Counted from the stretch's first letter, positions 4,215-21,682 are shown. The stretch: DNA of 64,000 nt from Escherichia coli (GCF_016903815.1 NZ_CP069973.1); one strand, 5' to 3'. Translations and numbers: made by a program. The notes: generated from the letters alone by a model not told the origin.

Positions 4215-5105
4215 TCAGGCTGCCAGATCATCGTTTCCGATGGAAGCATAATAAGCTTTTTCTGCTTCTGCCGGAGGAGTATGGCCCAGCCTTCCCAGCA
4301 ATCGTCGATTGTTATACCAGTCCACCCACGTTAGTGTGGCCAGTTCCACTTCTGCACGGTTTTTCCAGCTCTTACGGTGTATTACCTCCGCTTTGTAAAG
4401 ACCATTGATGCTCTCAGCCATCGCGTTGTCATACGAGTCGCCTGTACTCCCTGTTGATGCCAGTAATCCGGCTTCTTTTAGTCGCTCCGTATAGGCCAGT
4501 GACACATACTGAGAGCCTTTATCGCTGTGATGGATGGTGCCAGACGGACGACGGGCCCACAACGCCTGCTCCAGCGCATCCAGCACGAATGTCGTTTCCA
4601 TAGACGATGAGACCCGCCACCCCACGATGTATCCGGCAAACACATCAATGATAAACGCCACATAGACGAAGCCCTGCCATGTGCTGACGTAAGTAAAATC
4701 AGCCACCCACAGCTGGTCAGGTCGTTCTGCCACGAACTGACGGTTTACGCGGTCGCCTGCGGCAACGGCTTTCCGGCTGATGGTCGTACGGACCTTTTTA
4801 CCCCGGAGAACACCGGCAAGTCCCATAACCGCCATGAGACGTGCCACTGTACATCTGGCCACCCTGATTCCTTCCCGTAACAACTGACGCCAGACTTTAC
4901 GCACACCGTACACCTGATGATTTTCATCGTATACGCGCTGTATCTCTCTCTTCAGCCAGTCGTCGTGCTGCGCACGGGCACTGCGTTTATCCGGATGATG
5001 TCGCTGTTGCTGACAATGGTAATACGTTGACGGGGCAATATGCAGTTCGCTGCATACCGGTCCGACCCCGTACTGCTCACGCAGCTTATCCAGCAGTGGC
5101 ATCAT
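4215..5105 (-). CDS. IS629-type transposase OrfB (DDE integrase core)
   Basis: 296-aa ORF with IS3-family DDE catalytic core (e.g. [16 protein letters not shown]). Confidence 0.9.
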
Positions 5106-16068: not shown

Positions 16069-16635
16069 TCAGAAGTGAGGCTTACGAGGACGCCCTGCAG
16101 CAGGTCGTTCAGGAACTTCACTGCAACCGTATGCGCACAGTCCGTCTTTTTGCTCTTCTTTCGCCAGATAATGCAGGACACCGCGAATATTATCGATGCT
16201 CCCGGGATCGTTATGACGCACGGGAATGTTGATGTTGTATGTATAATGCGGCTGATATGTACAGCGGTGTGCCGAACCGCTGTTATGCGTAATAGACTGC
16301 CAGCATTCCGTAATCCGCTCCGCAAAGGGATATATTTTTTTAACCCTCTGACGATCGAGCCAGAAAACCGCATGCGCATGAAAACCATGATCAGCCGTCC
16401 ATTCAATCACCCAGAAGAAACCAACGATATTTTCAAATTGTTCCACCTGCTCCAGCAGCATACGCAACTGCAATTCAAGCCAGCGATGATCAGGTTGTAA
16501 GAAATCAGGCGTATCTTTCCTGTAGAAGAAATCCATGCGTAAGGCCCGCAGGCGGGAATAGCGTGCGACCAACTGATTGATGTGATTGTCAAGTAAAGCG
16601 GTAAAAAACCAGTTTGGTGTGTAAGATTTAGGCAT
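16069..16635 (-). CDS. YagK/YfjJ-family (inovirus Gp2-like) protein, paralog
   Basis: 188-aa ORF sharing motifs with the 15239-15841 and 19308-20039 ORFs (e.g. HAHAVFWLDRQ vs HYHVILLLNKD). Confidence 0.55.
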   Translation of the reverse strand: MPKSYTPNWFFTALLDNHINQLVARYSRLRALRMDFFYRKDTPDFLQPDHRWLELQLRMLLEQVEQFENIVGFFWVIEWTADHGFHAHAVFWLDRQRVKKIYPFAERITECWQSITHNSGSAHRCTYQPHYTYNINIPVRHNDPGSIDNIRGVLHYLAKEEQKDGLCAYGCSEVPERPAAGRPRKPHF

Positions 16636-18128
16636 GCTGATGACTCCTGAAAGTTAATGACGTTTTAAGTGCTGTAAACGAATTAATGCTTTCGCTCATA
16701 ATCAGATCTAAAACGGTAATAACTTACAGACGGTATTTATCAGGCATGCTGTAACAGAATGGATACGTCGGTTATTAACGACACACAGCGTTGTGCTGAA
16801 GGGTATGAGTTATCTGATGGCATTGTCTATAGAGATGAGATAAACGAGGTGCGAAGAAAATACAGATTCAATACAACACAGTGAAATACAGAAAAATACG
16901 AACTGTAATCCCGCTGCCAGGCGGTTAGGAAACATATTACAACTATAAGCTCATGGTTTGTAAATTTGCTCTCAGTGAGTCTGAAAAAACGTTTATAAGG
17001 TCACCACAATAAACTCACACGCGCTTATTCAATCTGTTCTCCAGGATATGAACGTTAACGACACACGATAGCATAAGACAACATACAATGGATGAATAAT
17101 TTTCACCCAGTACCTTAAACAATACAACCGGCAACAAATATAATCAGAAATTCACTCTGTTAATTCTGTTGTTTATCCTGCGCTGTTAAACATGACGGAA
17201 CCATGGATACCTTATCAAAGAGTAAGCATTCAGTTAATCAGTAATGACAGAGAAATTGATGTTCACCAGAATAGTTAAAACACTTCAGATAAACAATCAT
17301 TGTTAAGCAAATACGGTTCATAATGGATAAATTAGAATCAATTACTGTTTTACTGAAGATGAGAATAGATGAATATCAACAATAGCGTAGTAGAGAATAA
17401 CTTACCTGAACATCATATGAGTTACAGTAGTTATGATTGAGGGATGGAGTGAATACGATAACAAGAGTAATACTAATGGAATGTGTAAAGATTGAGAGTG
17501 AGTGAAGACAGGAAGTAAATAACAATAGAGATTGTATGAAAAAGGGAGTGAATAAAGAATATATAAAGAATAAATATAATTATAGTAATAAACCTAAATT
17601 AAAATCATCCTTGTTTGATGAGTAAAAATAATTCTAGAAAATGAATCTGTCTGAAAACTCTTTCTCAGAGATTAACCGATCAGATGCTCAACGGACTCAA
17701 TAAATTGGCTGAGTCAGGTTACCTCATCCACACTCTATTTGTTTCTAGAAGGATCTACCATTTTGTTCATCTACCGGAACACATCAATTTAGTAACTCGA
17801 TAATATCGGTTATGTAGATATTTATCGTTGCTACCAATGCCTAGATTATTATTCTCCAAGTATTTTCTTGACTTACAGGCTAATTTTGAAACAAATGTCA
17901 TGCTATTTTAGGAAAAGAACCTATGCAAAAGTCTGCTATGAGCGAGGAGCAGATATTCATCTGGTATACAAAGACAATATCGCTTAAGTCATCAGTGCTG
18001 CCACTTTAACCACTAGCTCTGCTCTTTTTGGACTTTTGAGCTAAAAATTAAATCTGACAGTGTGATAAGGTGCAAGTTTCTGAAAATACGCCAGTTGTTT
18101 TACACTCAAAAGCCCCCATTACTATCTG

Positions 18129-18884
18129 ATGTTAATGGCGCAGCAGTTATCTTTCAGATTATTAAGGGGAAACAAGAGTATGGCAAGATGTACAGCTCCT
18201 GTACGTGGACATAGCTCAGCAGCAGCTGCTGCTGCCTGTCCCGCATGTCGTAATCGCAGTGGTTATCGCCGCAGTAGCTACAGTTATGATAGTTACCCTT
18301 CTTACTCATCAGGCTCTAGCGGTGGCGGAAGTTATGGAGGCAGTAGCGGTGGTTCCAGCAGCAGCGCGAAGCCACGTTGGTCAAAATCAGGGTCTTCCGT
18401 TTCTTACACAACAGCCCAAGTACAATCACTCACACCAATTCGACAAGCGGTAGAGAAACTTGCCATTGAGCAACCTGATCTGCGTGATGTCTTTCTTTGC
18501 CATGCTTGGGATGACCGACAAGGTATTGCCAAAGAGTTACACGATTTGCTCGAAGCGGCAGGTGTCAAAGTATGGTTCAGCGAAAAGGATCTTGCCCTTG
18601 GTGTTCCGATGATGCGTGCCATTGATAAAGGATTAGCAAACTCTCGAATCGGCTTGGTTTTAGTGACACCTGCATTGTTAAACCGTCTTCCTAAAGAAGG
18701 CGTTGCTGATAAAGAACTTTCCGCCTTACTGGCAGGCAACCAACTCGTTCCCATCGTGCATAACACGACGTATGAAGCTCTCCGTAATGTCAGTCCTTTG
18801 CTTGCATCCCGAAGCGGCCTCGACACGGGAGAAGATACATTGGCAGTTGTTGCAACAAAAATTGCAGAGCTGATCACTGTTTAG
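18129..18884 (+). CDS. TIR-domain protein with Ser/Gly/Tyr-rich low-complexity N-terminal region
   Basis: C-terminal ~140 aa DVFLCHAWDDRQGIAKELHDLLEAAGVKVWFSEKDLALGVPMMRAIDKGLANSRIGLVLVTPALL fits the TIR pattern; start codon uncertain (18129, 18135 or 18180). Confidence 0.75.
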   Translation: MLMAQQLSFRLLRGNKSMARCTAPVRGHSSAAAAAACPACRNRSGYRRSSYSYDSYPSYSSGSSGGGSYGGSSGGSSSSAKPRWSKSGSSVSYTTAQVQSLTPIRQAVEKLAIEQPDLRDVFLCHAWDDRQGIAKELHDLLEAAGVKVWFSEKDLALGVPMMRAIDKGLANSRIGLVLVTPALLNRLPKEGVADKELSALLAGNQLVPIVHNTTYEALRNVSPLLASRSGLDTGEDTLAVVATKIAELITV

Positions 18885-19307: not shown

Positions 19308-20039
19308 TCACCTGCCATCCAGTAAACGCCCCGGCCCACGACTGCAACCATAATTACGTTGACCAGAACCGTCATGCTGCTTCGTCTCATACTTCACGAG
19401 ATAACAGGCTCTCTCCATGGCTTTCTGCATCGCTTCCACATCACCACGCTTGACCCAGAGCACAGCGGATCCACCAGATTTTTTGTCAGAAGCTTTCCGG
19501 GTATCAGAACATCCACCCGACAAAGGCGTATCATCGGAAGAAGGGCGAGCATCAGATGATGCCGGTTTACGGAAAGGCGTCCGCCTGGAAAAATGAACCA
19601 GTCCATTACCCTGCCAGGGTTCAAGATGCAGAGCGCTACACCATGCCAGCTTGATCAGCGTCGCCAGCGAAGAAGGAACGGTGAAATCCCCTAGCGAGCA
19701 CCAGGTATCTTTGTTGAGCAGTAATATCACGTGATAATGTTTCCTGCCTTTTTCCTTGCCAAACTCCCGACACCAGAAATAACGCAGAGTGGTTGCACGC
19801 ACACGCTTGTTGGCACGTCGTTTATGTCGCTGGTAAGCCTGAATTTTTGCTTTCAGGGATTCGAAAAAACGAGAAATCACCGCTGAATCCGAATCGGGAT
19901 CCATGATGGTGACAGGCATATACTCAGGGAAACGTAAATCCATCCGGATTAACGAGACGACACGGTGTTGCGCCAGGGCACTGTTGAGAATACTTTCAAA
20001 ACGGGATAACCAGTAAGCATTGTGTATTGGTTGATTCAT
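19308..20039 (-). CDS. YagK/YfjJ-family (inovirus Gp2-like) protein, paralog
   Basis: 243-aa ORF MNQPIHNAYWLSRFESILNSALAQHRVVSLIRMDLRFPEY... parallel to the two other paralogs. Confidence 0.6.
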   Translation of the reverse strand: MNQPIHNAYWLSRFESILNSALAQHRVVSLIRMDLRFPEYMPVTIMDPDSDSAVISRFFESLKAKIQAYQRHKRRANKRVRATTLRYFWCREFGKEKGRKHYHVILLLNKDTWCSLGDFTVPSSLATLIKLAWCSALHLEPWQGNGLVHFSRRTPFRKPASSDARPSSDDTPLSGGCSDTRKASDKKSGGSAVLWVKRGDVEAMQKAMERACYLVKYETKQHDGSGQRNYGCSRGPGRLLDGR

Positions 20040-21682
20040 GATGAGAGATCTCCGTTGATTTGGATTGACTTCACATCATTAATCACCGCGGTAAAACTTT
20101 ACGGCATCCCGCCATTGAGCAACGCCAATGGCTCCTGATTAAAACAGAATGAATCCCCCACGAAGAAAAAATAAACCTACACGCAGAGTAAAACACACAA
20201 CAACGGCATAAATGGTTTTTAAAAACTACAAAGCCTGAAGGGAAACGGATCCACAGAACGTGCAAACAAAACACCAAAAACGCAATCAGAACGCTTTCTG
20301 CTGCTGTGAATCAACAACAATACCAAAACCTACAGCTTAACCACAAAACTCAATCACAGAGCCGAATAGCGTGTTTAAAACCTGTTTACAGATAACCCTG
20401 CCACAAGAACAAAGTTCACCAATATCAGAATCGATTTTCTCATCCTGAAAATGTTACGTTTCACTACACAGCATAAAAACGATTAACTATTGATAACGTA
20501 AACCTCATCTGAATCAAAACACCAGAACCAATCATCACGCTTTTCCTGAAAAGAGCCTTGCGCTGAGAAAAAACACCAGGGTCAGTTAATCATCTCATCA
20601 ATCTCATCGTTACAAAAACATCCATAAAACCATTTAACAAAATCATCGTAAGCACACAGTAAATCACGCCAGGTTATCTCAGCCAAATTTTCGTTTTACA
20701 TAAAGACACTTGTCTCAGGTTAACGACTAAAAACACAAAAACTCAGAAAAGGTTAAACGTAACTTCAGAAAAATAGAATATCATATTGATTGCTTAAACA
20801 GGAAAGATTGTTTTGTAGTAGCATTAAGCTGATTTTAGTTAACGTAAAAACAGGACTGACAGGTTTACTAAACTGGATGTGTATCAGACAAAGCAATGTG
20901 TATAACAATACTTAATGAAAACACTTGTAGAATTGTTTATGAAAATACGTGTATGTCTGGTAAAACACTTAGTAGAAAATACGTGTATAACACTTACTGA
21001 AATGCTTAGTAAAAATACTTAGTAAAATATGTGTAGAATTATCTATTTAAAAAGATATGTATATAACACTTAATAAAAACATGTGTATATAGTATCATAC
21101 CGACATTCTCAACATCTTCAGACTTCCATACATACTGGGTGTTGATTTCTCACTTTTACAGCCAGCATGGAGTTTTCTGTCCTAAAAACAGAGCAGATTT
21201 ACTCTGGAATTATTTTTCTACCCCCGTATTTCAGGCCCCAGAAAAGACAATCCGAAGCAAACCGTTTGTCAGCCTCCATATCATCTTTTACCCCCGGAAA
21301 GTGATCGCGTTTACAACCAGAATGACAGCCATACTGATTATGTCGTCTCCCGGCCCCCTTCACATATAACATGCATGTCTGTCATTGCTTACTGCTCCAC
21401 ATGACCGGATTTCACATACAGGATGCACATTCAGTGTTTTTATCGCTACTATAACAGACAGATTACTGTCGTCTTTACTCTTCAGATTGTTAATCTGACC
21501 ACAAGAACAGCCGAACGGCAAAACGCCCTCCACAAGGGGCACATGAACCATAGTTGATAGCATGTTTTTCCTAATCAAGGAATAGTTCAGGAATATTTTA
21601 TTGCATTAATAACTGGCGAATAATCGTTCTGTGAACACAAAATGCTTTTATTTGTAAATTTTATTGCATTGCACTCGTTTTA

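Follow-up and report, generated by a model that had tools for sequence, protein, structure and literature searches.

A widespread non-coding block upstream of a yfjJ-like gene in Escherichia coli genomic islands, possibly a promoter with a long silencing leader

Long 5′ leaders that attenuate transcription through Rho utilization (rut) sites precede rho and tnaCAB in Escherichia coli and mgtA/corA in Salmonella. Rho loading needs RNA that is C-rich, G-poor, unstructured and untranslated, and the AT-rich leaders of genomic islands are typical substrates of H-NS. Hairpins that sequester the ribosome-binding site are found in tightly controlled messenger RNAs of mobile elements, including those of the IS10/IS200 transposases and plasmid rep genes. 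Here we describe a non-coding gap in a 64,000-nt stretch of E. coli DNA (GCF_016903815.1, NZ_CP069973.1; hereinafter the window), which separates a minus-strand yfjJ-like gene from a plus-strand gene for a TIR-domain protein. The left ~1 kb of the gap (16636–17632) is a conserved, unannotated backbone element upstream of the yfjJ-like gene, and we tentatively read it as the promoter and long silencing leader of that gene. A paralogue of this gene in K-12, yagK, has a "constitutive" promoter, TTTAGA-16-TATAAT, which is bound by RNA polymerase holoenzyme and was flagged as overlapping H-NS in genomic SELEX (systematic evolution of ligands by exponential enrichment; PMC3946193).

The element resembles the Rho-attenuated leaders in two respects. 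Its putative untranslated region begins with 70–190 nt of C-rich sequence that has very little G and is predicted to lack structure, and this tract is conserved in composition rather than in sequence. Unlike the classical Rho leaders, the putative leader is far longer (~950 nt), and a recognisable repeat motif makes up its tract. With the yagK promoter region (PMC3946193) it shares a gene of the YagK/YfjJ family, a TATAAT-type −10 element upstream, and a setting of AT-rich, horizontally acquired DNA. However, the K-12 spacers, yfjI-yfjJ and yagL-yagK, are only 150–270 nt long, whereas the gap described here extends over 1.5 kb, and DNA homology could be detected only in short motifs. The kilobase gap is thus particular to this island type. 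As in the IS10, IS200 and plasmid rep messages, the Shine-Dalgarno sequence and AUG of the yfjJ-like gene lie within a stable and almost invariant predicted hairpin of 41 pairs; unlike in those systems, this hairpin has no covariation support, and no antisense RNA or leader-peptide partner was identified.

The gap is real non-coding DNA. The original prediction, made from the sequence of the window, had placed an AT-rich non-coding gap at 16640–18128. The gap exists, but its true extent is 16636–18179 (1,544 nt), because RefSeq, in annotating the identical sequence of strain 222, starts the TIR gene at 18180, not at 18129. Its GC content is 34.8%, compared with 47.7% for the window. No open reading frame exceeds 50 aa on either strand of 16640–18128, and stop codons are dense in all six frames (29–45 per 514 codons). 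The C-depleted, purine-rich tract claimed within the gap was also confirmed. Specifically, the 165 nt from 17436 to 17600 contain A80 C7 G38 T40 on the plus strand, so the strong depletion holds, with 7 C rather than the about 6 first counted. The minimum over all 165-nt windows of the 64 kb is 5 C, at 17426; equal depletion of C or G occurs in no other such window on either strand (G never falls below 9), and the highest purine fraction of the 64 kb, 0.73, also falls at this C-poor stretch. None of 1,000 dinucleotide-preserving shuffles of the gap reached the minimum of 5 C (shuffle mean 17, minimum 10), and the binomial probability of 7 or fewer C in 17436–17600 is 1e-6 at the gap's own C content.

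The distribution of the gap among genomes divides it into two parts. A megablast search matched it in 1,570 of 5,426 complete E. coli genomes (~29%), with the entire gap in only 138. Most matches cover just the first 800–1000 nt beside the yfjJ-like gene, at 78–96% identity; some genomes hold several copies of this ~1-kb block, and among the matches listed none lies under an annotated gene except for insertion sequence (IS) insertions. The block stays beside yfjJ-like genes whatever cargo occupies the far side. The cargo is a YfjI-family (DUF3987) gene in ATCC 8739, EC12 and SCAID, dsdCXA in strain 536, a sugar kinase with pseudouridine genes in strain 164, fragments of an H-NS paralogue in IMT16316 and AR_0374, and the TIR gene in the window, where it stands in place of yfjI. 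The junction between backbone and cargo lies at ~17632, a few bases past a conserved AT block. The tract had been tied to the TIR gene in the original prediction; it turns out to be part of the backbone module of the minus-strand gene on the opposite side. The gap as a whole is best explained as a divergent control region between two modules. The same island module is carried by 12 E. coli plasmids, in all of which it is unannotated, and no match to the gap was found in the phage collection.

The tract was analysed together with the rest of the backbone block in alignments of 8 and of 15 variants. On the gene-sense strand, that is, the strand of the yfjJ-like message, it is G-poor and rich in pyrimidines. 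Across 15 variants its length ranges from 68 to 186 nt with many indels, which makes it by far the least conserved part of the block, while its G count stays at 4–8, its C/G ratio at 4.3–8.7 and its pyrimidine fraction at 0.73–0.78. The C/G ratio of the rest of the leader is 1.07. Copies of T[TCA]ACT[CT] number 3–8 per variant among the variants listed, all in the same orientation and with an irregular spacing of 4–46 nt. The tract is built from repeated T(C/T)ACT(C/T) copies of one orientation, and its composition is kept while sequence and length turn over. Tandem duplications are present in some strains, for example ~3 copies of CCACCTTCT in strain 164. The best 80-nt window of the tract has 25 C and 2 G, which places it in the top 0.04% of the 64-kb window by C-minus-G, and RNAalifold predicts no pairs inside the tract. 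These are features expected of a Rho rut site, namely a C-rich, G-poor stretch of ~80 nt or more with little structure. The strand bias is always in the sense of the yfjJ-like gene.

A few bases upstream of the tract on the gene-sense strand lies the TATAAT hexamer of the AT block. The 20-mer that precedes it, TTTTAATTTAGGTTTATTAC, is identical in 14 of 15 E. coli variants and differs by one substitution in strain 536; the hexamer after it is TATAAT or TATTAT. Relatives of the locus in other genera were collected by a protein-guided scan, with one genome per species. Genes for yfjJ-like proteins of 39–54% identity occur in Citrobacter, Enterobacter, Salmonella diarizonae, Mixta and Budvicia. 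A 26-nt stretch of the AT block is 88–92% identical in the Citrobacter, Enterobacter and Mixta loci and in a contig labelled Bacillota, and in most of these relatives it is the only DNA similarity to the window. The Salmonella diarizonae copy is diverged and was recognised by eye only, and Budvicia has no copy. In the relatives the stretch lies ~140 nt upstream of the yfjJ-like ATG, directly after the yfjI stop codon. Its core, TATAAT-TAA-N2-3-(C/T)ACTC(C)-T-run, was also found in Serratia, Xenorhabdus, other E. coli relatives and 22 distinct metagenomic variants; in Citrobacter, Enterobacter, Mixta, Salmonella, Serratia and Xenorhabdus it sits 130–210 nt upstream of the yfjJ-like genes. In these short-gap relatives the leader from TATAAT to ATG has a C/G ratio of 2.1–2.9, even where its sequence is unrelated. 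A scan of viral contigs with a 17-nt AT-block pattern gave at least 100 matches, which were taken as chance occurrences in AT-rich phage DNA.

Two of the relatives, L013 and L019, are labelled "MAG: Bacillota bacterium" yet carry yfjJ-like loci of enterobacterial type. The bins are probably contaminated and give no indication of an occurrence in Firmicutes.

We favour, tentatively and with less than even confidence, the reading in which the left ~1 kb is the promoter and the long untranslated silencing leader, of Rho/H-NS type, of the yfjJ-like operon. The conserved TATAAT and the invariant 20-mer upstream of it would form the promoter core of this minus-strand operon. Transcription would start at the AT block, as judged from the conserved TATAAT only, and the tract would be the 5′ end of a long untranslated leader. 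Rho would load on this C>G, G-poor, unstructured and untranslated RNA, H-NS would coat the 35%-GC DNA, and the proximal hairpin over the Shine-Dalgarno sequence and AUG would block translation. The G-poor 5′ stretch and ~800 nt of AT-rich leader would together keep the operon silent. Such a leader would explain why composition rather than sequence is conserved in the tract, why the bias follows the sense of the gene, and why the bias recurs in relatives with unrelated leaders. A role of the gap as an H-NS-bound silencing region, one of the options in the original prediction, is plausible on indirect grounds: the gap is AT-rich and lies in horizontally acquired island DNA, and by analogy the K-12 yagK promoter region is flagged for H-NS.

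Several observations weigh against a promoter with a silencing leader. The TATAAT of the AT block has only a moderate score in a sigma-70 position weight matrix (5.8, not the best of the region), because there is no good −35 element; no hexamer acceptable as −35 was found for it. Several other regions of the 64-kb window reach a similar C-minus-G, and the leader would be unusually long. The body of the leader evolves at about the neutral rate, so most of it may lack function. The constant composition of the tract could merely follow from growth and shrinkage of one repeat unit. No compensatory change was found in the hairpin at the ribosome-binding site among 10 distinct variants. Finally, the analogy to AlpA antitermination is weak. 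The idea that the invariant spacer is an AlpA-binding element was downgraded, as the helix-turn-helix protein of the island has 77 aa, whereas the Pseudomonas aeruginosa AlpA antiterminator is larger, makes contacts as far along as residue 142 and has further helices (PMC9371919).

The part of the gap nearest to the yfjJ-like gene is under constraint. Mean pairwise identity is 95.2% in 16636–16760, compared with 88.8% at 4-fold sites of the adjacent yfjJ-like gene. Minus-strand RNA of 16621–16765, which includes the first codons, is predicted to fold into an extended hairpin at −33.2 kcal/mol (z −3.46; 1 of 200 shuffles equally good), and the pairing is kept in 95.8% of cells (41 pairs, 10 distinct variants). 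The model in which this hairpin buries the ribosome-binding site of the yfjJ-like gene is only suggestive, because a region with so little variation offers no compensatory changes.

The body of the block, 16761–17435, behaves differently, with a mean identity of 85.7% against the same 88.8% at 4-fold sites, and no conserved RNA structure was found in it. Recombination breakpoints lie between block and gene; against DETEC-S560, for example, the gene is 100% and the block 85.5% identical. At the inner edge of the tract, a repeat search found an imperfect palindrome with a column conservation of 0.93, which lies in alignment columns 226–375, among the few windows with a shuffle z of ~−2 on both strands.

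The divergence of the body, slightly faster than that of 4-fold sites, also fits an explanation in which most of the gap has no sequence-specific function. The gap would then be an AT-rich acquired spacer, probably coated by H-NS, and the tract a low-complexity repeat of one CT-rich unit, whose composition would persist only through slippage and duplication. The tandem duplications in the tract, such as that of CCACCTTCT in strain 164, agree with this, as does a ~320-nt internal deletion in a relative (L019) that is otherwise 87–95% identical to the E. coli leader. Scans with the sigma-70 consensus and position weight matrix gave no convincing promoter anywhere in the gap, and no RNA structure signal was found. 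However, the AT block and the TATAAT-(C/T)ACTC core are kept between genera whose non-coding DNA is otherwise dissimilar, there is constraint on the proximal 125 nt, and the C>G bias of the leader also occurs in relatives with unrelated, non-repetitive leaders. We regard a spacer of this kind as rather unlikely, if the nearest competitor of the leader.

An inverted repeat, GGGGAGTG...CACTCCC, surrounds the AT block in the short-gap relatives, and a T-run comes after it. The repeat is predicted to fold at −17.2 kcal/mol (z −2.65), and Serratia has a compensatory version, GGAGTAA...TTACTC. Among 22 distinct short-gap variants the stem shows wobble changes, one compensatory change and several disruptive ones. 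The window and all E. coli long-gap variants have lost the left arm, and the long-gap form folds weakly (−8.8 and −5.5 kcal/mol, z −1.4 and −1.1). In one locus, L184 (metagenome contig OMGQ01000003.1, ~4582–4609), TATAATTAA is tandemly expanded in the AT block, with three extra copies compared with one elsewhere, so the spacing between the arms is not fixed. The hairpin and T-run of the short-gap relatives could be the intrinsic terminator of yfjI.

The nature of the neighbouring genes bears on a further reading of these repeats. The yfjJ-like product is HUH-Rep-like; it has the Pfam domains YagK_YfjJ_C and REP_ORF2-G2P, an HUH-type fold and conserved HxH and YxxK motifs. A PriCT-DUF3987 protein was shown to be a 5′–3′ helicase serving the replication of mobile elements, and DUF3987 was assigned to Superfamily 6 (SF6; PMC11724360). 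YfjI is a DUF3987 protein, and the island backbone thus carries a replication-like module.

The AT block and repeat tract could be a present or former rolling-circle origin of this module, with a nick by the YfjJ-like nuclease in or next to the AT-rich block, the T(C/T)ACT(C/T) repeats as binding iterons and the asymmetry as a consequence of one-sided sites. Besides the HUH-type fold and motifs of the adjacent gene product, relatives of the protein are named "rolling circle replication-associated protein" in the sources, and yfjI lies upstream of the block in most islands. The repeat motif is enriched and unidirectional, and the inverted repeat flanks the AT block in short-gap relatives, with its compensatory Serratia version. 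The layout recalls that of filamentous phages, in which the M13 origin hairpin lies ~220 nt upstream of gene II. As in the M13/f1 intergenic region, non-coding DNA lies directly upstream of a gene for a Gp2-type or HUH-like nuclease, and in the relatives only, an inverted repeat around an AT-rich segment is followed by ACTC-containing repeats. Unlike in M13/f1, there is no packaging signal and there are no minus-strand origin hairpins, and the hairpin is missing in the variant of the window. A similarity to the M13 origin that was striking by eye (ACTCTTGTT, TTAATAG-G-ACTC) was dropped as evidence; in local alignment the tract and AT block match the M13 origin no better than chance (z 0.2; 134 of 300 shuffles did equally well).

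Against an origin stand also the loss of the left arm in all E. coli long-gap variants, the irregular repeat spacing, and several metagenomic variants that disrupt the stem rather than compensate. The short-gap hairpin and T-run can equally be read as the yfjI terminator, and we know of no evidence that these islands replicate. The argument for an origin comes entirely from gene context, and we consider an origin improbable. A fuller version, slightly more doubtful still, would make the AT block and the T(C/T)ACT(C/T) array the double-strand origin of a chromosomal HUH-nuclease/SF6-helicase module, with islands of the pathogenicity island (PAI)/CP4 type replicating or mobilising by rolling circle after excision and with repeat turnover setting the Rep-origin specificity between co-resident islands.

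Another reading places the function of the tract on its plus strand, as a non-coding RNA such as a CsrB-type GGA-rich protein sponge or an R-loop-forming primer RNA. Repeated GGA/GGAG motifs are present on this strand (partly recognised by eye), and a promoter-like TAAACA-17-TATAAT lies at 17116–17144. However, the GGA motifs are expected from composition alone, and the promoter-like site is not conserved, with a 4-nt spacer insertion and −10 changes in several variants. By eye the plus-strand tract is not followed by a terminator, and neither an Rfam match nor conserved plus-strand structure was found. A CsrB-like sponge was rejected, as no conserved promoter, terminator or structure was seen, and a plus-strand RNA of any kind is very improbable.

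A structured RNA in general, which the original prediction had also proposed, was not supported either in the tract or over most of the gap. A scan against Rfam 15, retron msr-msd models included, returned at E ≤ 10 only four noise matches (E 1.8–8.2) to implausible families, far below gathering scores. In the RNAalifold consensus, covariation accounts for −4.7 of −87 kcal/mol, with compensatory changes in 11 of 191 pairs. For the most part, z-scores from column shuffling exceed −2 on either strand, the exception being the proximal hairpin at the ribosome-binding site.

Last, the gap could be the remnant of a decayed coding gene, such as a yfjI once present here or a thsA partner that the TIR gene has lost. 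ThsB is normally neighboured by ThsA. The TIR product matches the PADLOC ThsB model PDLC00424 over residues 1–233 of 234 (E 2.7e-128), and no ThsA or other PADLOC match was found in the gap or in the five neighbouring open reading frames scanned. The locus thus has ThsB but not the adjacent ThsA expected of a Thoeris system, which makes the TIR gene look like an orphan ThsB. In addition, yfjI fills the cargo position in other islands. Against decay, six-frame Pfam and PADLOC scans of the gap are empty, and blastx against 2,205 open reading frame fragments (at least 70 aa) of related loci matches only the homologous non-coding region. Stop codons are dense in all frames, no intact gene overlies a match among the matches listed in the 1,570 and 219 genomes, and most indels between variants have lengths not divisible by three. 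The homology searches thus recovered conserved non-coding DNA and no decayed coding sequence, contrary to the degraded-gene option of the original prediction, and such a remnant is highly unlikely. No conserved small open reading frame with coding-like substitutions was found in the gap either. One of 27 aa (17321–17238, gene-sense strand) is intact in 12 of 14 variants; it was dismissed as a coding frame because, judged by eye, its substitutions are mostly non-synonymous.

The features of the gap and its flanking genes are collected in Table 1.

Table 1. Features of the gap and flanking genes, in window coordinates
Feature	Coordinates	Strand	Description
yfjJ-like gene	16069–16635	−	188 aa; YagK/YfjJ or "inovirus Gp2" family; HUH-Rep-like nuclease
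Proximal upstream region	16636–16760	−	Most constrained part of the gap; predicted to fold with the first codons
Body of the conserved backbone block, putative long leader	16761–17435	−	About neutral rate; mosaic by recombination
Imperfect palindrome TAACTnA...TnAGTTA	17396–17427		Repeat search; column conservation 0.93; inner edge of tract
C-depleted purine tract	17436–17576	−	Gene-sense strand: G-poor, pyrimidine-rich, degenerate T(C/T)ACT(C/T) repeat array
AT block	17577–17625	−	TATAAT at 17584→17579, preceded by TTTTAATTTAGGTTTATTAC at 17604→17585; promoter-like core
Cargo-side non-coding DNA upstream of the TIR gene	17633–18179		Mosaic; no Pfam or PADLOC match in any frame
TIR gene, orphan ThsB-like	18180–18884	+	234 aa; PADLOC ThsB PDLC00424, Pfam TIR_2

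The cargo-side part of the gap (~550 nt) is matched in 219 genomes, in 89 of them over at least 80% of its length, and is not annotated in any of the matches listed. It consists of mosaic segments (~17633–17711, 17712–17960 and 17928–18179), whose combinations differ between genomes.

In islands that bear yfjI, the ~500 nt that run from the yfjI stop codon to the AT block are also conserved (~80%) and unannotated (L003 5997–6538, L006 6040–6592, L008 5972–6519). This region opens with a hairpin directly after the yfjI stop and contains CGGTAGC, which resembles the RfaH ops core. It is missing from the window, where the TIR cargo replaces yfjI.

The locus belongs to an E. coli genomic island of PAI/CP4 type, which contains IS66 and other IS remnants, type VI secretion gene fragments and an integrase fragment, as well as a block of GTPase, antirestriction, RadC and YeeU/CbtA genes. 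The minus-strand module reads, from the gap, yfjJ-like (188 aa), a hypothetical gene (~190 aa) and the AlpA-family helix-turn-helix gene (77 aa). To the right of the TIR gene lies a second Gp2-family gene (243 aa, 19308–20039, minus strand), so that the TIR gene is cargo between two Gp2-family genes.

Upstream of this 243-aa gene there is a second unannotated gap of ~1.6 kb (20040–21682). It is kept in 1,878 of 5,426 E. coli genomes and is mostly unannotated among the matches listed. At ~20100–20700 its gene-sense strand is G+T-rich and C-poor, a skew opposite to that of the tract described above. No DNA similarity or shared repeats were found between the two gaps, or between the first gap and the rest of the window.

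Within a few kb of the module, related islands often encode their own H-NS paralogue and a gene of the ProQ/FinO family that is usually frameshifted (L004 822–1256 and 6414–6512; L020 5220–5660; L004/L006/L008 around 1925–2493). These neighbours hint at island-encoded nucleoid and RNA-chaperone control.

The left block is thus a widespread, unannotated cis-region of a general kind that is already known. It is of mild interest for its size, its prevalence and its HUH-Rep context; it is present in ~29% of complete E. coli genomes and apparently unannotated wherever we looked. The assignment to the backbone removes a false lead, namely regulation of the TIR gene by the tract, or a retron-like RNA encoded in it. 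It also sets the boundary of a cargo slot that exchanges defence and metabolic genes (TIR/ThsB, YfjI, dsdCXA and others). An origin of replication, if real, would bear on how pathogenicity islands move. As the promoter and leader that we tentatively favour, the block is a concrete candidate cis-element for the silencing of replication-like genes in cryptic islands.

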